Assembly: GCA_963835655.1 (NCBI GenBank)
Contig: CAWIGJ010000003.1
Location: forward strand, 868,372 to 932,371
DNA from: an uncultured Chloroflexia bacterium
Lineage (GTDB): Bacteria > Chloroflexota > Dehalococcoidia > DSTF01 > JALHUB01
Reading direction: 5' to 3'
DNA length: 64,000 nt
Part shown: positions 33,022 to 52,514 of the stretch, one piece after another
Layout: each line of letters begins with the position of its first letter
How positions within the stretch are numbered: position 1 is the stretch's first letter
The notes under the pieces: model-generated
Database searches by the model: none
What the model was told of the DNA's origin: nothing
What the model saw: the letters and a program-made list of their open reading frames with translations, nothing else
Translations under genes and position numbers: made by a program

Positions 33022-33190
33022 CCAGTCACCTCCTGACATCTGCTGATGATAGCGCACACACTAAAGATCAAGCAACAAATTGGCGTGGCTAGACTCCGCA
33101 CACATCCCCTAACCACTTGCAGATGATTGCGCCAACATGCTAGACTGCCTCATCAAGGAATCGGCACAACGGCTACGAAAGGGGGACGCC

Positions 33191-34801
33191 ATGTTTTACC
33201 AGACGAGGGTCTCTCGTCGAGGTTTTCTTGCCGGAGCTGCTGCTGCTGGAGGGGCGGCTGGCCTTGTTCTCATCGGCTGTGGCGGAAAGAGCGAGAATGC
33301 CGGACTAATCACTCCGACCGCCGCGGCAGGCGAGCCGAAGAAGGGTGGCACGATCAGACTCAGGAACAACGCTGCCATCCTCAGCCTTGACCCCAATATG
33401 ACTGAAGGGGTCTCCTGGGCCCCCTACTTCTACAGTTACGTGGTTCAACCGACCGACTGGCATGCCCCTGATTACACAATTGGCGATCTTGCGGAATCCT
33501 GGGAGACGCCCGACGACAACCATTGGATCTTCCACCTGCGAAGCGACGTTAATTTCCAGAACGTCGCACCTGCGAACGGGCGGCCTCTGGTCGCGCAAGA
33601 TATCGTCAAGAGCATCGATCGCTACCGGTCAACGCCGAATGCCGGACTCGCCTGGACCCAGTGGACTGAAAGGTACGAAGCGACCGATGAACACACGTTC
33701 ACGGAGATAACGAAACAGCCCTACGGATACTTCTTGTATGACCTGGGCAGCCCCGCCACGGCAATAATGGCGACGGAGGCAATTGATCAGTTCGGTGACC
33801 TGAAGACGCACGTCGCGGGCAGCGGCCCTTACACGCTCCAGTCGTACGACCCAAACACGTCCCTGGGGGTGGTGCGCAATCCCACCTATTACCAGGACTA
33901 CCCTTACGTGGACGGCGTCAGCATCAAGGTCTACACCGACGATTCGGCCGCCCAAGCGGCGTTTCGGGCGGGCCAGATCGATGCCTACGATGCAGCCACC
34001 AAGCCCGCGGCGGACAACGTAAGCGGCGTGAGCGGCGTGACAGTTCAGAAGTACCTGAATCGCCAGTACACCGTGTTCATGATGAACGCCGTTCAGGAGC
34101 CAAGGTTCAAGGACGAGCGAATTCGTGAAGCCATAGACCTTGCCCTTGACCGCAAACAGATGATCGACAAGCTATGTTTTGGCAATGCTGAACTGGCCGG
34201 CCCGATACCGCCCATCTGGCCGGCCGCCCTTCCGCCCGAGGAGATCGACGCCGCGTACACGAGAGACGTGGCCAAGGCGAAACAGCTTCTGTCCGCAGCT
34301 GGTGCTTCTGACCTGGCGTTCGATCTGACGTTCGGGACCTACGCAGACCATCCAGACCGCGCCGCGATTATCCAAGCCAACCTGGCGGAGGCTGGCATCA
34401 CGGCCAACCTCAAACCCGCCGATGTCGGCACCTGGCTGAGTAACTTGGAGAGTAATAACTTCGTTAGTACGACATTCCAGCACCTATCCTACCTATCCGA
34501 CTACATTCCGATAAACTGGCACCACAGCCACGGCTGGGGCCATCTCGATACCACGTATACCGGAGTTGATGATCCGCAGGTTGACGCGATGATCGATCAG
34601 ATCAATGGGACGATCGACGACCAGACACGAATCAAGCTAGAGCAGGATACCCAACGGCTCATTCTGCAGCGTCACGGCCCGACGCTCACACTGTATCAGC
34701 CTTACAACTACTGGGCCGCTTACGACTACATCAAGGGCTACAAGCCGACGTCGTTCGGCTTCGGGCTGTTCAATTACGGTTACTGGATCGACAAAGGATA
34801 G
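33191..34801 (+). CDS. ABC transporter substrate-binding protein, family 5, Tat lipoprotein (paralog 1)
   Basis: SRRGFL Tat motif, IGC lipobox, GDLAESWE.PD, GSGPY, D.R.R.A..LA.DR and YWIDKG end. Confidence 0.92.
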   Translation: MFYQTRVSRRGFLAGAAAAGGAAGLVLIGCGGKSENAGLITPTAAAGEPKKGGTIRLRNNAAILSLDPNMTEGVSWAPYFYSYVVQPTDWHAPDYTIGDLAESWETPDDNHWIFHLRSDVNFQNVAPANGRPLVAQDIVKSIDRYRSTPNAGLAWTQWTERYEATDEHTFTEITKQPYGYFLYDLGSPATAIMATEAIDQFGDLKTHVAGSGPYTLQSYDPNTSLGVVRNPTYYQDYPYVDGVSIKVYTDDSAAQAAFRAGQIDAYDAATKPAADNVSGVSGVTVQKYLNRQYTVFMMNAVQEPRFKDERIREAIDLALDRKQMIDKLCFGNAELAGPIPPIWPAALPPEEIDAAYTRDVAKAKQLLSAAGASDLAFDLTFGTYADHPDRAAIIQANLAEAGITANLKPADVGTWLSNLESNNFVSTTFQHLSYLSDYIPINWHHSHGWGHLDTTYTGVDDPQVDAMIDQINGTIDDQTRIKLEQDTQRLILQRHGPTLTLYQPYNYWAAYDYIKGYKPTSFGFGLFNYGYWIDKG

Positions 34802-34843: not shown

Positions 34844-36112
34844 ATGGCTATGACGATGGCGCAGAAAGCGCTGGCGAGGGCCGCCGGTAAGGATGAAGTC
34901 CTCCTAAGCGAATACGTCACCGCTCGCGTTGACCGCTGTATCCTCCACGAGGTCTTTGCTGCAGCGGGCTCGACCCTTGAGGCAGCCGGCATTTCCCGCC
35001 TTCATGATTCTCAGAGTGTTGTCGTCATCAACTGCCTTTGGTTCCCTGCCTTCGGACCTGAACAGGCTCGAGTTCATGCGATCGGCCGCCACTTCGCAGA
35101 CGCTTTCGGTGTTGAGAACTATCTCGGCGGAGCCGGCACTTGTAATCTCCCGCCCATCGAGCAAGGCTTCATCCGCCCAGGCGAGCTCGTCCTCGGAACC
35201 GATTCGCACAGCACTACCTACGGCGCCCTGGGCGCGGCCGGCGCCGGAATCGGTCTGACTGAGATGGCCTGGGTTCTGGCTACGGGTAGCCTCTGGATGC
35301 AGGTGCCGCCCACGATTCGTTTTCGCCTCACCGGTAATCCAGGGCCGGCCCTCATGTCGAAGGACGTCATGCTCTGCATAGCCGGGAGGTATACGACGGA
35401 GGTGGCCCAGTACCAATCGGTAGAGTTTGCCGGTCCGCTTGCTGAGGGGATGTCTATCGCGAGCCGGATGACGATGAGCAATATGGCGGCGGAGATAGGG
35501 GCGAAGTTTGCCTTCTTTGCCGCCGATGAGAAGACGGTGGCGTATCTGACGGGACGTGTCAAGGGCGAGGTCTCGACCTTTGGGCCGGACCCTGATGCCG
35601 AATACAGCGCGGACTACGAAGTAGACGTGAGCGGGTTAGAGCCCCAGGTGGCTTGCCCGGACGACCCGGGGAATGTCGTTTCCGTACGAGAGGTAGCGGG
35701 GACGAAGGTGGACCAGTTCTTCCTGGGGTCGTGCACCAACGCCCGTCTAGAGGACCTGGCGGTAGCGGCGGACATACTCAAGGGTAAGAAGGTCTACCCT
35801 CGCTCGCGTCTAATCGTGACGCCGGCGTCGAAAGAGGTCTATCTGGATGCGCTGAGGGCGGGGTACCTGGAGACGCTGGCAGAGGCTGGGGCGGTCATAA
35901 CCTCCTCCGGCTGCGGCGCCTGCCCGGGCTTTCACATGGGTCTGCTCGCCCCGGGCGAGGTCTGCCTTTCGACGACGAACCGCAACTTCAAGGGCCGGAT
36001 GGGGAGTCCCGAGGCAAAGATATACCTGGCGTCGCCCGCGACGGTCGCTGCCTCTGCCAGCGAGGGTGAAATCGTCGACCCGACGACACGATGGAGCGGG
36101 GACGCCCTTTAG
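34844..36112 (+). CDS. LeuC/HacA-like aconitase-family large subunit, copy 1 (atypical N-terminal catalytic motifs)
   Basis: GTDSHSTTYGA, GSCTN, CGAC and STTNRNF are present; the canonical DH and CHQ motifs read NCL and CNL. Confidence 0.88.
   Translation: MAMTMAQKALARAAGKDEVLLSEYVTARVDRCILHEVFAAAGSTLEAAGISRLHDSQSVVVINCLWFPAFGPEQARVHAIGRHFADAFGVENYLGGAGTCNLPPIEQGFIRPGELVLGTDSHSTTYGALGAAGAGIGLTEMAWVLATGSLWMQVPPTIRFRLTGNPGPALMSKDVMLCIAGRYTTEVAQYQSVEFAGPLAEGMSIASRMTMSNMAAEIGAKFAFFAADEKTVAYLTGRVKGEVSTFGPDPDAEYSADYEVDVSGLEPQVACPDDPGNVVSVREVAGTKVDQFFLGSCTNARLEDLAVAADILKGKKVYPRSRLIVTPASKEVYLDALRAGYLETLAEAGAVITSSGCGACPGFHMGLLAPGEVCLSTTNRNFKGRMGSPEAKIYLASPATVAASASEGEIVDPTTRWSGDAL
35165..36081 (+). 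repeat. 917-bp near-identical repeat, copy A
   Basis: Matches 36542-37458 (offset 1377) with about 12 substitutions counted by eye. Confidence 0.95.
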
Positions 36113-36220
36113 CCAGGCAGGACGACCGAAACGGCAGATCGTAGGCCGCTCACGGTAATCTCCGATCGATGACATGATCTGGAAGACTTGGAGGGATCCG
36201 GTTCTGTTGGGAGCGCTCTC

Positions 36221-37501
36221 ATGGGCATGACGATGGCGGAGAAGGTTCTTGCACGGGCATCGGGCCGCGACGTCGCCGCGGCAGAAGAGTATGTCACCGC
36301 CAGTGTCGACAGAGTGATGGCCCATGAAGCCTTTGCCGCCAGCTGCCTCCTTCTGCAGTCGAACGACGTTTCCTCGTTTGCCAAACCTGACCGGATCGTC
36401 GTTGTCATGGATCACTGGTACCCGGCTCCCACGGTACGTTACGCGCAGGCCCACGCTATCTGTCAGCACTTTGCTGAGAAGTTCGGCGTGAAAAACTACT
36501 TGGGTGGCGCCGGCGTTTGCCATCAAGTTCTTCCAGAGCGTGGCTTCATCCGCCCAGGCGAGCTCGTCCTCGGAACCGATTCGCACAGCACTACCTACGG
36601 CGCCCTGGGCGCGGCCGGCGCCGGAATCGGTCTGACTGAGATGGCCTGGGTTCTGGCTACGGGTAGCCTCTGGATGCAGGTGCCGCCCACGATTCGTTTT
36701 CGCCTCACCGGTAATCCAGGGCCGGCCCTCATGTCGAAGGACGTCATGCTCTGCATAGCCGGGAGGTATACGACGGAGGTGGCCCAGTACCAATCGGTAG
36801 AGTTTGCCGGTCCGCTTGCTGAGGGGATGTCTATCGCGAGCCGGATGACGATGAGCAATATGGCGGCGGAGATAGGGGCGAAGTTTGCCTTCTTTGCCGC
36901 CGACGAGAAGACGGTGGCGTATCTGACGGGACGTGTCAAGGGCGAGGTCTCGACCTTTGGGCCGGACCCTGATGCCGAATACAGCGCGGACTACGAAGTA
37001 GACGTGAGCGGGTTAGAGCCCCAGGTGGCTTGCCCGGACGACCCGGGGAATGTCGTTTCCGCACGAGAGGTAGCGGGGACGAAGGTAGACCAGTTCTTCC
37101 TAGGGTCGTGCACCAACGCCCGCCTGGAGGACCTGGCGGTAGCGGCGGACATACTCAAGGGTAAGAAGGTCCACCCTCGCTCGCGTCTAATCGTGACGCC
37201 GGCGTCGAAAGAGGTCTATCTGGATGCGCTGAGGGCGGGGTACTTGGAGACGCTGGCAGAGGCTGGGGCGGTCATAACCTCCTCCGGCTGCGGCGCCTGC
37301 CCGGGCTCGCACATGGGTCTGCTCGCCCCGGGCGAGGTCTGCCTTTCGACGACGAACCGCAACTTCAAGGGTCGGATGGGGAGTCCCGAGGCGAAGATAT
37401 ACCTGGCGTCGCCCGCGACGGTCGCTGCCTCTGCCAGCGAGGGTGAAATCGTCGACCCACGCGAAGCGCATCCCGAAGCGATACTCACCGGAGGAACATA
37501 A
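36221..37501 (+). CDS. LeuC/HacA-like aconitase-family large subunit, copy 2 (canonical)
   Basis: MDHWYP, GVCHQV, GTDSHSTT, GSCTN and CGAC motifs. Confidence 0.93.
   Translation: MGMTMAEKVLARASGRDVAAAEEYVTASVDRVMAHEAFAASCLLLQSNDVSSFAKPDRIVVVMDHWYPAPTVRYAQAHAICQHFAEKFGVKNYLGGAGVCHQVLPERGFIRPGELVLGTDSHSTTYGALGAAGAGIGLTEMAWVLATGSLWMQVPPTIRFRLTGNPGPALMSKDVMLCIAGRYTTEVAQYQSVEFAGPLAEGMSIASRMTMSNMAAEIGAKFAFFAADEKTVAYLTGRVKGEVSTFGPDPDAEYSADYEVDVSGLEPQVACPDDPGNVVSAREVAGTKVDQFFLGSCTNARLEDLAVAADILKGKKVHPRSRLIVTPASKEVYLDALRAGYLETLAEAGAVITSSGCGACPGSHMGLLAPGEVCLSTTNRNFKGRMGSPEAKIYLASPATVAASASEGEIVDPREAHPEAILTGGT
36542..37458 (+). repeat. 917-bp near-identical repeat, copy B
   Basis: Matches 35165-36081. 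Confidence 0.95.
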
Positions 37502-37502
37502 G

Positions 37503-38006
37503 ATGAGGCACGTGATCCGAGGCCGCGTCTGGAAGTTCGGCGACAACGTGAACACCGATGTTATGGCGCCGTGGGATACGATCTCACAACCCTGGGAAGA
37601 GGCTCGCCACAGAGTCCTCCATATTCGTCAGGACTTTGTGGAGGGGATGCGGGCGGGGGATGTCATCGTCGCCGGACGGAACTGGGGCTGCGGCTCGAGT
37701 CGAGAGCAGGCGGCGCAGTACCTTAAGGATCTGGGGCTGGCGGCCGTCGTTGCGGAATCATTTGGGCGTATCTACTTTCGCAACAGCATAGCCATTGCCT
37801 TCCCCAATATAGCCTGTCCCGGTGTCGCCGGCGACTTTGACGACGGCGATCAGATCGAAATCGAACTGGAGACCGCCGCTGTTCGCAATCGCTCGAAGGG
37901 GAGAAAGCTCCAGGGGCAACCTTATACAGCGGAGATGCTGGAGATTGTGCAGAAGGGCGGCCTTATGGCCCTTCTGAAGGAACGAAGGGCAGCGGGACTT
38001 CTGTGA
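37503..38006 (+). CDS. LeuD/HacB-like small subunit
   Basis: FGDNVNTD, AGRNWGCGSSREQA and AESFGRIYFRNSI motifs. Confidence 0.93.
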   Translation: MRHVIRGRVWKFGDNVNTDVMAPWDTISQPWEEARHRVLHIRQDFVEGMRAGDVIVAGRNWGCGSSREQAAQYLKDLGLAAVVAESFGRIYFRNSIAIAFPNIACPGVAGDFDDGDQIEIELETAAVRNRSKGRKLQGQPYTAEMLEIVQKGGLMALLKERRAAGLL

Positions 38007-39076
38007 AACGCATCGCCATAATCGAGGGAGAGGACGCGGCGCCCGAAACGATCCGCCCAACAGTCGAGATACTGGCATCGTTTGATCTGCCGATCCAGTT
38101 CCTGTATCCCCCGGTGGGCCTCCCAGCCGAACAGCAGTTCGGCGACAATTTCCCTGCGGAGGCGAAACGGATCATCGACAGCTCGGATGCAGCTTTGTTT
38201 GGGGCAACGAGCGGTCCTTCCGTGCGCGCGCTCTTCTACCTGCGCTGGGGGCGAAAGACATACGCGAACGTGCGCCCAGTTCGATGGTTGCCTGGCGCCA
38301 TAAGCCCATTGGCCAATCCAGAAGGCATCGACTTTGTCATCGTGCGGGAGAACATGGAGGACATGTACGTCGGCATCGAGGGCGATCTCGCGACGCTTTC
38401 GTCGGAGTTCACCTGGCGGGCGACTGGACGCGCCGCGGCAGAAGCTGCACCGGGGAAATACGCCGTGAAGGTCATAACCGAGGCAGGGAGCCGCCGTATC
38501 GCCCAGTTCGCCTGCCGACTCGCGGAGCAGCGCCAGCGGCGTGGCTTCCCCGGAAGAGTGACGGTAGGAACTAAGCACAACATGTTGTTCCAGTCTGACG
38601 GCCTGTTCCGGGAGGTCGCGGAGGCGGTTGTCGGCCGACATGACGGACTGACATTCGAGTCGTTTATTATCGATGATTTGGCGAGAAGGATGGTCTCCGA
38701 TCCTCAATCATTCGACGTCGTTCTCCTTCCTAACCTGTATGGCGATATCCTCTCCGATGAAGCCTCCGCGCTCGTAGGCGGACTGGGGCTCGCACCGTCG
38801 GGATGCTATGGGGATGACTATGCGTATTTCGAGAGCGCGGGCGGGTCGGCACCTGACATCGCGGGACAGGGCATCATCAACCCGACCGCGACGCTCCTCT
38901 CAGCGGCCATGATGTTGGACTATCTGGGCTTCGAATCAGAAGCGAGACGACTGGCGACGGCGATTGAAGGCGTCTACCAAGAAGGCCTTAGCCTGACTCC
39001 TGACCAGGGAGGGACGTCAAGAACGACAGATTTCTGCAGCGAGGTTAGGCGCCTCCTAGAGGAGGGTTGCTACTGA
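38003..39076 (+). CDS. Isocitrate/isopropylmalate-family decarboxylating dehydrogenase
   Basis: YANVRP, IVREN.E.MY, PNLYGDILSD and GSAPDIAG...NP.A.LLS motifs; GTGA overlap with the small subunit. Confidence 0.92.
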   Translation: MKRIAIIEGEDAAPETIRPTVEILASFDLPIQFLYPPVGLPAEQQFGDNFPAEAKRIIDSSDAALFGATSGPSVRALFYLRWGRKTYANVRPVRWLPGAISPLANPEGIDFVIVRENMEDMYVGIEGDLATLSSEFTWRATGRAAAEAAPGKYAVKVITEAGSRRIAQFACRLAEQRQRRGFPGRVTVGTKHNMLFQSDGLFREVAEAVVGRHDGLTFESFIIDDLARRMVSDPQSFDVVLLPNLYGDILSDEASALVGGLGLAPSGCYGDDYAYFESAGGSAPDIAGQGIINPTATLLSAAMMLDYLGFESEARRLATAIEGVYQEGLSLTPDQGGTSRTTDFCSEVRRLLEEGCY

Positions 39077-39207: not shown

Positions 39208-40338
39208 ATGTCAGTGACGCACGAGCGTCAATGCGCCAAGACCATCGAGCGTTGGGAGTCCTTCTGGTCGTTGGAGGACATCGGAAGGCCCCTGTGGGTG
39301 TTTCCGGCCGCGTCGACCAACTTTGCTGTCTATGCCCGCACAATGTCGTTGAAACAGTTGTTCCGAGAGAAGGAGCTCCAGCTCACGACCGAGCTCGCAA
39401 CCCTCAAGTGGCGTGATCAGATGGAAATCGACGACGACTTTGTGCCGCAGTTGCAGCCTCAAGGAGGCGTCACTGTCTTCGCCTCCGCCTTCGGCTGTCA
39501 AGTTGAGTACTTTGAGCATACGCTGCCCTGGGCGCACCCGGTTATCACGAAGGATGATCCGCCGGAGAAGGTGTACGACCTGAAGCCGCCAGCGGTAACT
39601 GATGGGCAGCTTGGTGCGATGCTTGAATTCACCGACTACTTCGTTGCCGAAACAGGCGGCCGCTACCCGATTGCCCTAACTGACACGCAGGGGCCCTTGG
39701 ACACGTCTTACCTTGTCTGGGAGCCGAGCGCCTTCATGCTGGCGATGTACACCAATCCCAAGGAAGTGCACCACTTAATGCGCCTAGTCACCGACCTGAT
39801 TATCAAGTACGTGAAGGAGCAAAGGGCTCGTTCGCCCGAGTTCATGCCCTGTCACCATCCGCCTCTCTGGCTGCCAGATGGGCGCGGAATCGCAATAAGC
39901 GACGACGGGTTGGCCGTAATAAGCGCAAAGCTGTACGAGGAGTTCTGTCTTCCGTATGTGAATGAGCTCTCTGATGAGTTCGGCGGGATACTCATCCACT
40001 CCTGCGGCAAGTTCGTCCATCAACTCGACAATCTCGGGAAGGTGAACAATTTGCGAGGCCTGAATTTTGGAGCGACCGAGACACCTTTCGAAGCGATCTG
40101 GGAGCGCTTCAATGACAAGACGGCCCTGATCCCTCACCTCGGGCTGAATAACGTGGGCGGCCAGATTCACTTCGAGAACAACGAAGAGTTCATGGGTAGC
40201 CTACTCAGAACGAGAACCCACAATCGCGGGCTCTGCATTATCGTCTCGCCAGCAGAAGGCGAGCTAACGTCATCACAGCCCGATCCCCTGAAGACATTCT
40301 TCGAGCGCACACGGCAGATGCTGGTGCGTTTCAGCTGA
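39208..40338 (+). CDS. Uroporphyrinogen decarboxylase-like / MtaA-CmuA family protein
   Basis: TDTQGPLD, MLAMY..P..VH.L, ISDD and IHSCG motifs. Confidence 0.75.
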   Translation: MSVTHERQCAKTIERWESFWSLEDIGRPLWVFPAASTNFAVYARTMSLKQLFREKELQLTTELATLKWRDQMEIDDDFVPQLQPQGGVTVFASAFGCQVEYFEHTLPWAHPVITKDDPPEKVYDLKPPAVTDGQLGAMLEFTDYFVAETGGRYPIALTDTQGPLDTSYLVWEPSAFMLAMYTNPKEVHHLMRLVTDLIIKYVKEQRARSPEFMPCHHPPLWLPDGRGIAISDDGLAVISAKLYEEFCLPYVNELSDEFGGILIHSCGKFVHQLDNLGKVNNLRGLNFGATETPFEAIWERFNDKTALIPHLGLNNVGGQIHFENNEEFMGSLLRTRTHNRGLCIIVSPAEGELTSSQPDPLKTFFERTRQMLVRFS

Positions 40339-48860: not shown

Positions 48861-50459
48861 CTAGCCTTTGTCTATCCAGTAGTCGTACTTGAATAGCCCG
48901 AAGCCGTTCGCAGTTGGTGTGTATCCCTTGATAAAGTCCATCGCGACCCAGTAAGCGTATGGCTGGTAAAGGGTGAGCGTCGGTCCGTGGCGCTTCAAGA
49001 TCAGCCTTTGCACATCGAGCCACGTATTGATCCGCTGCTGTTCATCGAGGATCGTTTGGGCATTCTCAATCATCGAGTCGACCTGCGGGTCGTCGACGCC
49101 GTAGTTGAACGCTTCGCTGTTGCTGAATCCGCGGCTTTGATGGAACGCCAGGGAGAAGTCAGAACCGAGATAGGGCAACTGCTGCATCAAAGTAGCCTCA
49201 AAGCTGCCGCTGTAGTACTCGGATATCCATGTGCCCTGATCTCGCTCGGCTAGGTTCGCTGTGATGCCAGCCTCCGCCAGGTTGCTCTTGATTAATGAGG
49301 CGAGGTCTGCCTGGTCCGGCGAGGAAACAAATGTGAGCGTAAAGCTCAACCCGTCGGCGCCCGCAGCAGATAGAAGACTCTTTGCCTTTGACACGTCTCT
49401 CGTGTAGGCCGCTTCAATCTCTTCCTTGGGTAGAGCCTCGTTCCCTCCTGAAGGGGGTATAGGGCCCGCCAGTTCACCGTCGCCGAAGCATATCTTCTCG
49501 ATCATCTGATTACGGTCAAGGGCCAAGTCAACCGCCTCGCGGACCCGCTCGTCCTTGAATGCCGCCAACTTTGAGCCATTGAGTATGAAGGTCATGTATA
49601 TACTTTGCAGGTATTTCTGAGTGCTGGCGCCGCTGACGTCCTTGACGGCGTCGGCGCTCGGCTTGTTTGTCGCGTTATAGACGTCGATCTGACCGCTGCG
49701 GAAGGCTGCCTGAACGGTGGCGTCATCAGTGATCACCTTAATGCTCTGCCCGTCCACGTAAGGATAATCTTGGTAATAGGTAGGGTTGCGCACCATCGAC
49801 ACCCCATCGTTGGGTCGATAGTCGGTCAGCATGAACGGCCCGCTGCCGACAACCTGAGTGCTAAGGCTATCCGCCGCTTCCACGGGAACGATGGCTGCTA
49901 TCGGGCTACCGAGCGTCAGCAGCACGGCCCAGCGTGGGTCCCTAGTCGTCAAGCTGAACGTATAATCGTCCGGAGCCGAGTAACCGATTATCCAGTCGGT
50001 CCAGGCCTGGGGAACGCCCGGCATACTCTTCATCCGGTCATAGCTCTTGACGATGTCGCCGGCCACAAGGGCACGGCCATTGGCTGGGGCGACATTCTGA
50101 AAGCGGACATCGTTGCGGATCTTGAATGTCCAAGTGACATCGTCGGGCATCTCCCACGATTCTGCCAGGTCACCGACGTTGCCCTTCCAGTCAGTCGCGT
50201 GGATCACATAACTGTAGAAGTCGGCGGCAGTTAGAAGGCCCTCCGCATTGTGAGGGTCTAAGCTAAGGATGGACGATGGGTAAGAAGTGCGGAGGGTGCC
50301 GCCGCGCACCGGTTGACCCGTCGCGCCTGTCGGGCCGGGAGTAAGCAACCCTCCCTGCTTGCTTCCGCCGCAGCCGATGAGAACGAACCCTGCGGCCCCT
50401 AAGGCTGTCACGGCCCCTCCCATGAAGCGCCGGCGCGATACCCTGGTTCTATACAACAT
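48861..50459 (-). CDS. Family-5 ABC substrate-binding Tat lipoprotein (paralog 2)
   Basis: SRRRFM Tat motif, IGC lipobox, GDLAESWE and YWIDKG end. Confidence 0.92.
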   Translation of the reverse strand: MLYRTRVSRRRFMGGAVTALGAAGFVLIGCGGSKQGGLLTPGPTGATGQPVRGGTLRTSYPSSILSLDPHNAEGLLTAADFYSYVIHATDWKGNVGDLAESWEMPDDVTWTFKIRNDVRFQNVAPANGRALVAGDIVKSYDRMKSMPGVPQAWTDWIIGYSAPDDYTFSLTTRDPRWAVLLTLGSPIAAIVPVEAADSLSTQVVGSGPFMLTDYRPNDGVSMVRNPTYYQDYPYVDGQSIKVITDDATVQAAFRSGQIDVYNATNKPSADAVKDVSGASTQKYLQSIYMTFILNGSKLAAFKDERVREAVDLALDRNQMIEKICFGDGELAGPIPPSGGNEALPKEEIEAAYTRDVSKAKSLLSAAGADGLSFTLTFVSSPDQADLASLIKSNLAEAGITANLAERDQGTWISEYYSGSFEATLMQQLPYLGSDFSLAFHQSRGFSNSEAFNYGVDDPQVDSMIENAQTILDEQQRINTWLDVQRLILKRHGPTLTLYQPYAYWVAMDFIKGYTPTANGFGLFKYDYWIDKG

Positions 50460-50900
50460 CGTTAACCCCCCTTCGTCTGCAACTAGACTCCCGCCTCTTT
50501 CGCTGGTTCATGTTGAGGTGTGCCTGTAGATGCAGCCGAATTCGCAAATTCGCGTGTCTCTGAGCGAATCGCAGAGTAGCAGCCGGACCAGAGGCTTGTC
50601 AAATGGGTGGAGATTGAATCTGTGGAGAGTTGCGGTTCTTGCTTGGTTACCCCCAAAGGTTGTTATTTCGAAATCGCCCCATTGGGGTCTGGCATTCGAT
50701 ACCACATCATCGCATACTGTTGACCGAAACCGGAAGATTGTGAGAGATTCAGGGCCGCTCAACTTTGGCGTCGTTCAGTGCGTGTAGCAGCCGTCATCTT
50801 GTCCGTGCCGCGGGAATCTGGAGGATGAACAGGTATTTCGCACACATCCCGCAACCTCATCGGCAAATCAAAACAGGAGAAGCGACAAACGGAGGAGGAC

Positions 50901-52514
50901 ATGCTTTACCAAAAGAGGATCTCACGTCGCGGTTTTCTGGCCGGAGCGGCGGCCACGGGAGGCGCGGCCGGGCTTGTTCTCATCGGCTGCGGCGGCAAGA
51001 GCGAGAATGCCGGATTGATCGCTCCGACGGGTGCGGCAGGCCAGCCGAAGAAGGGCGGCACCATTCACTTCTACACTCTAGCACCTGTTCTGAGCCTTGA
51101 ACCCGCCTCGGTTCAGGGATCCGCTTGGGCTAACTTACCGTACAGCTATGTCGTTCAGCCGACCGACTGGCACGCCCCTGACTACATAATTGGCGATCTC
51201 GCGCTGTCATGGGAGACGCCTGATGACGTGACGTGGATCTTCCACCTTCGCGACGATGCTAAATTCCCAGATATCGCGCCCACAAATGGTAGGCCGCTGG
51301 TTGCCGACGACATAGTGAAGAGCATCGATCGGCTACGCACGAAACCGGGCGTCCCCCCCGGATGGGACGAATACACGGAAAAATACGAGGCGGTGGACGC
51401 GCGAACGTGGAAGGAGACCACCAAGAAGCCATATGGTTACTTCCTGTACGACCTGGGGGGCGGCGCGACCGGCATCGTGGCTACGGACCTCGCGGAGAGT
51501 TACGGTGATGATCTGTCGAGCAAGGTGGCCGGCAGCGGGCCTTACACTGTGAAATCGTACAGTCAAAATGAAGGGTTGGAGGTGGTGCGCAATCCGCTCT
51601 ACTACCACGACTACCCGTATGTCGATGGGTTCAATTTCAAGGTCTTCACAGACGATGCGGCTGCGCAGACGGCTTTCCGGGGCAGGCAGATCGATGCCTA
51701 CAGTCCGCCCAGCAAGCCGACGGCGGACAACTTGAGGAGCGTTAGCGGCGCGAGCATCACGAGGTTCCTGGACCAGGAATGGAGCGTGTTCGTGGTGAAT
51801 GCCGTGAAGTTCCCTCAGTTCAAGGACGAACGGATACGAGAGGCAATCGATCTGTCATTGAACCGGCAGCAGATGATCGACAAGCTGCTCTTCGGAGATG
51901 CCGAGCTTGCCGGCGCGGTGCCGCCGTACTGGCCGGCCGCGCTCCCGAAGGAGGAGATCGAAGCAGCCTATCAGCGTGACGTGGAGAAGGCGAAACAGTT
52001 GCTTTCGGCGGCCAACGCATCGGATTTGACGTTCGATCTCTCCTTCGCCAGCTACCAGGACAACCCGGACCGCGCGGCGATCATCCAGAGCAATCTAGCC
52101 GATGCTGGAATCACCGTAAACCTGAAAACTGCAGATGTCGGCACTTGGCTGGATGCTCTACTGAAGAACGACTACGTAAGCACGACATACACTCAACTGC
52201 GGTACGGAAACGACTGGGTGGCGGTCAACTGGCAGCACAGCTGTGGTTATACCCACTCGGAAGCCAACTACACCGGGGTTGACGATCCTGAGGTCGACGC
52301 CCTAATAGACCAGATCAACGGGACGATCGATGACCAGGAGAGGACAAAGCTGGAGCAGGATATGCAGCGGAAGGTCCTTGCCAGGCACGGGCCAATGTTT
52401 ACCCTGTACCAGCCGTATGACTATTGGGCGGCCTACGACTACGTCAAGGGTTACACGCCGACATCGAACGGCTTTGGCCTGTACAAGTACGACTACTGGA
52501 TCGACAAAGGCTAA
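50901..52514 (+). CDS. Family-5 ABC substrate-binding Tat lipoprotein (paralog 3)
   Basis: SRRGFL Tat motif and YWIDKG end; closely colinear with paralog 1. Confidence 0.92.
   Translation: MLYQKRISRRGFLAGAAATGGAAGLVLIGCGGKSENAGLIAPTGAAGQPKKGGTIHFYTLAPVLSLEPASVQGSAWANLPYSYVVQPTDWHAPDYIIGDLALSWETPDDVTWIFHLRDDAKFPDIAPTNGRPLVADDIVKSIDRLRTKPGVPPGWDEYTEKYEAVDARTWKETTKKPYGYFLYDLGGGATGIVATDLAESYGDDLSSKVAGSGPYTVKSYSQNEGLEVVRNPLYYHDYPYVDGFNFKVFTDDAAAQTAFRGRQIDAYSPPSKPTADNLRSVSGASITRFLDQEWSVFVVNAVKFPQFKDERIREAIDLSLNRQQMIDKLLFGDAELAGAVPPYWPAALPKEEIEAAYQRDVEKAKQLLSAANASDLTFDLSFASYQDNPDRAAIIQSNLADAGITVNLKTADVGTWLDALLKNDYVSTTYTQLRYGNDWVAVNWQHSCGYTHSEANYTGVDDPEVDALIDQINGTIDDQERTKLEQDMQRKVLARHGPMFTLYQPYDYWAAYDYVKGYTPTSNGFGLYKYDYWIDKG

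Follow-up and report, generated by a model that had tools for sequence, protein, structure and literature searches.

A tandem LeuC-like gene pair with a probably gene-converted core and a diverged N-terminus, in which one copy is predicted to lack the acid catalysts of aconitase

Two adjacent genes for LeuC-like large subunits of the aconitase superfamily, found in the genome of an uncultured Chloroflexia bacterium (assembly GCA_963835655.1), raise the question of how a gene pair can be almost identical over most of its length and far diverged at its ends, and whether the upstream gene, in which active-site residues are replaced, is still a maintained subunit. The two genes, termed copy 1 and copy 2, lie in tandem within a 64,000-nucleotide (nt) stretch of contig CAWIGJ010000003.1 (positions 868,372 to 932,371 of the forward strand); this whole stretch is the window, and all positions below refer to it unless a locus is named.

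Alignment of 35165-36081 in copy 1 with 36542-37458 in copy 2 (917 nt, offset 1377 nt) revealed exactly 12 differences, corresponding to 98.7% identity, at positions 35527, 35685, 35710, 35725, 35746, 35749, 35795, 35867, 35931, 35932, 35995 and 36016. The first 362 nt of this core were free of differences, and only three amino acids differed between copy 1 and copy 2, namely V/A at 281, Y/H at 318 and F/S at 363. The original prediction, made from the sequence alone, had given about 12 differences, three amino acids and an identical first ~360 bp, and had described the first ~107 codons as far more diverged, all of which agrees with our counts. The first 107 codons of the two copies align in perfect register without a gap, at 48% protein and 54% DNA identity, and their third codon positions are 35% identical compared to a random expectation of 29% from base composition, i.e. 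they are saturated. The C-terminal tails, comprising the last ~10 codons, have diverged as well. Chance cannot yield 98.7% identity over 917 nt beside a stretch that is 54% identical. In the core, GC content at third codon positions exceeded that of the N-terminus, a trend shared by the orthologues, and therefore no inference on biased conversion was drawn.

Separate treatment of the N-terminal and core segments, as advised by the original prediction, gave opposite patterns of distance. Between the copies, the core showed a nonsynonymous distance (dN) of 0.005 and a synonymous distance (dS) of 0.04 (dN/dS 0.14), whereas both cores were equidistant from the orthologues, with dN of 0.12-0.15 and dS of about 1.7-2.0. 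The N-terminal dS of copy 1 was saturated to copy 2 and to every orthologue, so that the N-terminal segments parted roughly as long ago as the orthologues did. Because core dS is so low between the copies, about 2 to the orthologues, and N-terminal dS is saturated, gene conversion, or an equivalent recent replacement, is the only explanation that accounts for both the core and the N-terminal pattern. Moreover, the 12 differences are unevenly spread, with one in the first 520 nt and 11 in the following 397 nt (permutation p about 0.006), and the probability that the first 362 nt of the core are free of differences was 0.0024. Given this unevenness, the data point to at least two conversion events of different age and hence to recurrent homogenisation. 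The tract ends adjoin the strongly conserved peptide blocks GFIRPGELVLGTDSH and YLASPATVAAS, at which recombination between diverged copies could resolve.

A tandem pair, or near-identical cores, might also arise if an assembler built them out of strain variants or if polishing went wrong. The DNA comes from a metagenome, the only run containing parts of the stretch (X1, which may be the source sample and not independent) covers the region at 2-5x only, and in no public run was the part of the N-terminus that is unique to copy 2 found. However, unitigs of X1 matched with 0 mismatches the N-terminal part of copy 1 as far as the boundary of the core (34908-35173) and the copy-1-specific core variants (35884-36034), and a further one (36045-36266, 0 mismatches) joined the core end, the copy 1 tail, the spacer and the start of copy 2. 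In addition, the window lies within a 1.44 Mb contig, and 12 ordered, mostly synonymous differences are unlike those of a collapsed repeat. We regard an artefact as very unlikely.

The original prediction had interpreted the pattern as recent gene conversion or a domain swap between old paralogues. Conversion of the core was borne out (dS 0.04, sharp boundaries, two tract ages), but a family-level age of the paralogues was not. Residues 1-108 of copy 1 had just two non-self matches, both canonical, among 5.8 billion protein clusters, and an exhaustive phmmer search with residues 1-120 against 1.84 billion representatives gave a best match of 49% identity and none with Cys-Leu plus Asn-Leu. The same kind of search with the copy 2 N-terminus returned 220 proteins, the best of which (79, 75, 73, 71 and 68% identical) are metagenomic orthologues. 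The contigs of these orthologues carry one large subunit, a LeuD of 167 amino acids (aa) and an Iso_dh gene of 354-357 aa. Neither a second large subunit nor a remnant was found upstream at seven orthologous loci, and two large-subunit genes next to each other, with no small-subunit gene in between, occurred at 0 of 80 more distant genome loci. A Chloroflexota metagenome-assembled genome has the order LeuC-LeuD-LeuC-LeuD-isocitrate dehydrogenase-like (L008:4163-8897) with DDH and ILHQ in both large subunits; this arrangement is a duplicated pair and not a large subunit duplicated alone.

In the N-terminal tree including the close orthologues, copy 1, copy 2 and P0155-P0159 formed one clade with support 99/97. 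Since the copy 1 N-terminus nests in this tight orthologue clade and close relatives carry one large subunit, copy 1 is very probably a lineage-specific tandem duplicate of the module's own large-subunit gene, the core of which was overwritten by repeated conversion. By virtue of the same nesting, the assumption of old family-level paralogues was rejected. The N-terminal end branches measured 1.68 for copy 1, 0.25 for copy 2 and 0.03-0.16 for the single-copy orthologues, the copy 1 branch being 7-10 times longer than those of its relatives. A sister relation of the two copies, recovered in an earlier tree without the close orthologues, was neither rejected nor shown by the approximately unbiased (AU) test (p=0.28).

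As copy 1 was not resolved as sister of copy 2, and is slightly closer to P0158/P0159 (56%) than to copy 2 (48%), an alternative is that the duplication was recent and that recombination with a foreign orthologue or a third paralogue supplied copy 1 with its first 107 codons. Searches of the protein collections found no donor-like sequence, though, and the start codons and the whole segment stand in exact register at the 1377-nt offset. Furthermore, the diverged C-terminal tails are as expected of old duplicates with a converted middle, and the sister relation was not rejected. We consider such an import highly improbable.

Under a lineage-specific duplication, the large-subunit gene of a three-gene module encoding LeuC-like, LeuD-like and isopropylmalate dehydrogenase (IPMDH)-like proteins would have been duplicated in tandem in this lineage, and inter-copy homologous recombination would since then have repeatedly overwritten codons 108-413, keeping them 98.7-100% identical. 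In this converted part lie the three cluster cysteines, GTDSH and the Arg/Asn residues for substrate binding, while the first 107 and last ~10 codons, outside the tracts, have diverged until their synonymous sites are saturated. Gene conversion between duplicated bacterial genes, and the concerted evolution that results, has been surveyed (PMC6053082). As in tufA/tufB and the rRNA operons, the paralogues are far closer to each other than to their orthologues, and the pair described here has sharp tract boundaries and signs of repeated events. In those classical cases, however, whole functional genes are kept equal, whereas here three quarters of the gene are converted, and half of the active site lies in the remaining quarter and is lost in copy 1.

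Copy 2 reads VVVMDHWYP and GVCHQV where copy 1 reads VVVINCLWFP and GTCNLP, which reproduces exactly the motifs listed in the original prediction. In register, copy 1 thus carries the changes D64C, H65L, H101N and Q102L relative to copy 2, plus V103P and L104P. The positions of the first four are 85-97% conserved among 114 homologues. GTDSH, GSCTN, CGAC and NRNFKGR are present in both copies, so that the three cluster cysteines and the Asp165-Ser166-His167 motif are kept, and the window contains one LeuD-like gene only; retention of the iron-sulfur (Fe-S) cysteines and GTDSH and a single shared small subunit had likewise been noted beforehand. A profile alignment of 20 homologues with pig mitochondrial aconitase equated the DH of these proteins with CDH (Asp100-His101) and their CHQ with IHQ (His147), in line with the proposed mapping to His101 and His147 and adding Asp100 to it. 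The general-acid pair Asp100-His101 and His147 are accordingly present in copy 2 and replaced by Cys-Leu and Asn in copy 1. In aconitase, His101 protonates the leaving hydroxyl, and His147, Asp165 and His167 keep the fourth iron's ligand in place (PMC8184944). On the basis of this alignment and these residue roles, copy 1 is predicted to be without the acid catalysts and to have the cluster ligands, the serine base being expected on the small subunit. A peptide specific to the copy 1 N-terminus is the segment spanning VVVINCLWFPAFGPEQAR.

The N-terminus of copy 2 (36221-36541) is itself not free of unusual changes: G22E, G49D, D55K and R82Q affect positions that are invariant in the five closest orthologues, and Arg82, 93% conserved family-wide, is kept in copy 1 and changed in copy 2. 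Constraint on both copies may have relaxed since the duplication, or they may have co-adapted.

According to their family-model scores, both copies are archaeal-type LeuC/HacA-family large subunits of the aconitase superfamily. They exceeded the cut-offs of NF001614 (Table 1) and, with 434 bits for copy 1 and 495 for copy 2, of TIGR02086 (cut-off 410), and also reached the subfamily model TIGR01343. Neither copy reached an equivalog model for LeuC, HacA or aconitase: copy 1 and copy 2 scored 392 and 428 against an equivalog cut-off of 611 for TIGR02083 (LEU2), 364 and 417 against 550 for NF040615 (HacA), and 207 and 217 against a cut-off of 560 for TIGR00170. Copy 2 matches 4KP1, the isopropylmalate/citramalate isomerase large subunit of Methanocaldococcus jannaschii, over residues 1-415. 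With archaeal-type LeuC/HacA large subunits (M. jannaschii; PDB 4KP1, 4NQY, 4KP2) both copies agree in fold, length, cluster cysteines and GTDSH, and in having LeuD as a separate partner; they differ in scoring below the equivalog cut-offs and in lying in a cluster without a synthase gene, and copy 1 additionally in being without the equivalents of Asp100, His101 and His147. The AlphaFold model of copy 1 has a predicted local distance difference test score (pLDDT) of 96, which, the model being alignment-driven, shows fold compatibility only.

Is copy 1 a maintained protein? Its 422-codon open reading frame (ORF) is intact, and over the first 107 codons it has no insertion or deletion (indel) relative to any orthologue. 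A three-way decomposition of the N-terminal Nei-Gojobori (NG86) distances assigned dN of about 0.36 to the copy 1 branch and about 0.13 to that of copy 2. Since each branch has a dS of about 1.2 or more, the dN/dS ratio (omega) of copy 1 is at most about 0.3, compared to about 0.1 in the orthologues. Conserved sites are under-represented among the N-terminal substitutions, with changes at 17 of 58 clade-invariant positions versus 33 of 49 variable ones (p=1e-4), and seven of the eight family-invariant non-catalytic residues are kept (T4, K8, D30, P68, R82, G98 and E106). All four catalytic positions are among the changed invariant sites (p=0.008); an enrichment of double-hit codons in the active site was not significant (p about 0.1). 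The core dN/dS of 0.14 between the copies and the position of copy 1 inside an apparent operon in which no terminator-like site was found also speak for continued constraint. From these comparisons we put the probability that copy 1 is a maintained large subunit, catalytically disabled or altered, at roughly 0.5.

A number of observations weigh against maintenance, several of them in favour of a decaying duplicate, whose N-terminus drifts and whose remainder looks healthy only through conversion from copy 2, the intact frame being due to luck and to the shortness of the unprotected part (321 nt). Copy 1 is a singleton, its N-terminus and its substitutions being without a match in the 5.8 billion clusters or the 1.84 billion representatives, and therefore the variant state has no cross-species conservation. 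The relatives, in whose orthologous modules one large subunit suffices, imply that copy 1 is dispensable for the pathway. As dS is saturated, the omega of copy 1 is an upper-bound estimate only. About 30 substitutions exceed the normal orthologue load and are distributed rather evenly between conserved and variable positions; a neutral phase of ~0.155 substitutions per site would give this excess, and the simulated probability of acquiring no stop codon in such a phase was 0.36, so that the lack of stop codons alone is no argument against decay. In the core, Y318 and F363 of copy 1 are derived and unusual and sit in the older tract, and F363 lies beside the CxxC ligands at a position where only A, G, T or S occurs in 114 homologues. 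Copy 1 has a weaker Shine-Dalgarno sequence (AAAGG, 11 nt upstream) than copy 2 and LeuD, the weakest in the operon, and among the public runs searched no RNA run holding the stretch was found. Decay would further agree with an end branch of 1.68 as against 0.03-0.25 in the relatives and with the loss of all active-site residues of the N-terminal segment, accompanied by the gain of two prolines.

Nevertheless, the saturated third positions of copy 1 indicate a long separation, and over this time about 50% protein identity was kept and neither an indel nor a stop arose. Around 50 neutral substitutions are normally accompanied by several indels. An average omega of about 0.3 instead of 1 and the seven of eight retained family-invariant residues also argue against decay. 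The original prediction had named two signs of simple decay, namely that no homologue shares the substitutions and that dN/dS is neutral; no such homologue was found, but dN/dS on the copy 1 branch was about 0.3 and not 1, and simple decay is thus not shown. We consider decay possible, though rather unlikely.

A bearing on the loss of these residues comes from one of the phmmer matches, P0013, a 604-aa LeuD-LeuC fusion that is without the Asp-His pair and has Asn at His147. A search with P0013 disclosed a conserved fusion clade (P0273-P0278 and P0280-P0282; 588-610 aa, 51-89% identical in that region) with the small-subunit domain first. All members have T-A, T-G, T-M, S-L or T-L for D-H and I-[IV]-N-Q for C-H-Q, and all have lost the His of the M-x-H-E motif; GSSRE, G[ST]DSH, the cluster cysteines and NRNFxGR are kept. 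The P0013 locus (L081:8001-9815) adjoins genes for a prpB-like lyase, an isochorismatase-like hydrolase and an alpha/beta hydrolase, and P0013 matched no NCBIfam equivalog. As the clade is conserved, it shows that subunits of predicted aconitase fold can stay under long-term selection without Asp100, His101 and His147, and the fusion family probably represents a different chemistry within the aconitase superfamily. The fusion proteins and copy 1 have in common the missing Asp-His pair and the Asn in place of His147; unlike copy 1, the former are fused, conserved across many contigs and found in another gene context. Membership of copy 1 in the P0013 family was rejected, copy 1 being unfused and placed with its own orthologues in the tree (99/97). 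Another active-site variant of the large subunit was seen in second LeuCD-like pairs of several genomes (L025:9235-10410, L029:2700-3926, L037:1075-2295, L074:643-1863 and L079:4171-5448), a subgroup with D-C (or D-L) for D-H and G-[ST]-H or G-Q-H for C-H-Q.

The fusion clade lends some credit to the idea that copy 1 and LeuD are active with the Fe-S cluster and the LeuD serine base in the absence of the His101 acid, catalysing another elimination or isomerisation or acting on another substrate of the pathway, since it makes long-term selection of such a variant conceivable; GTDSH, the cysteines and NRNFKGR are kept by copy 1 as well. But copy 1 lies outside the fusion clade and shares only the Asn state with it, its variant residues are conserved nowhere else, and two prolines plus leucines resemble a loss rather than a new catalytic set. 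New chemistry in copy 1 appears quite improbable.

The N-terminus of copy 1 has evolved several times faster than that of any relative, with Asp-His turning into Cys-Leu and His-Gln-Val-Leu into Asn-Leu-Pro-Pro. As the fold-defining residues are mostly kept and the reading frame is intact, a maintained copy 1 should still fold and bind a [4Fe-4S] cluster and LeuD; without Asp100/His101 and the water-holding His147 it would not perform the canonical dehydration/hydration. Copy 2 and LeuD would form a working isomerase, and copy 1 would compete with copy 2, or partner it, for the single LeuD. A more specific version, which we regard as unlikely, is that copy 1 is a selected non-dehydratase Fe-S subunit in which cluster, substrate and LeuD binding are kept by the converted core and the private N-terminus switches off or changes the chemistry, so that its role would be that of a sensor, a regulator or a partner in hetero-oligomers, titrating the single LeuD or the substrate, as a convergent parallel to the LeuD-LeuC fusion family. 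Catalytically inactive members of the aconitase superfamily are known in IRP2 and the RNA-binding apo-IRP1, eukaryotic monomers of four domains for which a second function is known. Copy 1 would resemble them in its aconitase fold and in having given up hydratase chemistry, and differs from them as a three-domain bacterial subunit that keeps all cluster ligands. A literature search for inactive LeuC paralogues and for dimethylmaleate hydratase found nothing useful.

The features of the locus are compiled in Table 1. No promoter- or terminator-like sites were found between the genes for the solute-binding protein, copy 1, copy 2, LeuD and the dehydrogenase, and this series of genes looks like one operon from its sequence. 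The longest ORF of the solute-binding gene opens at 33137; as the ATG at 33191 is preceded by GAAAGGGGG and opens straight into the twin-arginine signal MFYQTRVSRRGFLAG, it appears to be the more likely start. Two further family-5 solute-binding genes, at 48864-50468 (-) and 50856-52511 (+), are 57% and 67% identical to it. The IPMDH-like dehydrogenase, which did not reach the cut-off of an equivalog model in the family-model scan, is present in every orthologous module examined. No synthase gene was found in the cluster, and the module of LeuC-like, LeuD-like and IPMDH-like genes is probably catabolic. A URO-D/MtaA-like gene (39208-40338; PF01208, weak MtaA/CmuA-family matches) follows the dehydrogenase gene and, being absent from the orthologous modules L082-L088, probably lies outside the conserved three-gene module.

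Table 1. Coordinates of the genes and sequence features at the tandem LeuC-like locus (window positions).
Feature	Position	Strand	Evidence or remark
Solute-binding protein, family 5, with twin-arginine translocation (Tat) signal	33137..34801	+	PF00496 3.5e-66 and TAT signal match; first gene of apparent operon
Copy 1, LeuC/HacA-family large subunit, 422 aa	34844..36112	+	ORF intact, active site remodelled; NF001614 476 bits (cut-off 385)
Copy 1, diverged N-terminal 107 codons	34844..35164	+	48% identity to copy 2, 50-56% to orthologues, gap-free
Copy 1, codons 64-65, TGC CTT (Cys-Leu)	35033..35038	+	replaces aconitase Asp100-His101
Copy 1, codons 101-104, AAT CTC CCG CCC (Asn-Leu-Pro-Pro)	35144..35155	+	replaces His147-Gln-Val-Leu
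Copy 1, younger conversion tract	35165..35684	+	1 difference in 520 nt versus 36542-37061; maximum-likelihood-ratio split at 35685
Copy 1, older conversion tract	35685..36081	+	11 differences in 397 nt versus 37062-37458; contains derived Y318 and F363
Inter-copy spacer, 108 nt	36113..36220	+	GGGAG 7 nt before copy 2 ATG; terminator-like site not found
Copy 2, canonical LeuC/HacA-family large subunit, 426 aa	36221..37501	+	NF001614 525 bits; 4KP1 E=2.5e-118; orthologues 77-82% identity
Copy 2, active-site codons	D64-H65 at 36410-36415; C100-H101-Q102 at 36518-36526	+	
Copy 2, core, conversion partner of 35165-36081	36542..37458	+	repeat comparison
LeuD/DmdB-family small subunit with GSSRE (= Ser642/Arg644)	37503..38006	+	TIGR02087 154 bits
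Isocitrate/isopropylmalate-type beta-decarboxylating dehydrogenase (IPMDH-like)	38003..39076	+	PF00180 1.8e-76; start overlaps LeuD stop

Altogether, the conversion of the core is supported, and for the status of copy 1 we lean towards a non-catalytic or altered subunit. The locus represents a clear-cut natural case of partial concerted evolution within a single pair of bacterial genes, in which the converted part holds the residues for cofactor and substrate binding and the unconverted part holds the acid catalysts, wholly lost in one copy. If copy 1 is decaying, conversion can hide a dying gene from annotation, as the family models name both copies alike. The fusion family is probably the better target in the search for new aconitase-superfamily chemistry. 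A functional copy 1 would be the first LeuC-type subunit described as non-catalytic or re-purposed, and would imply that conversion can keep the binding surface of a pseudoenzyme matched to its active partner.

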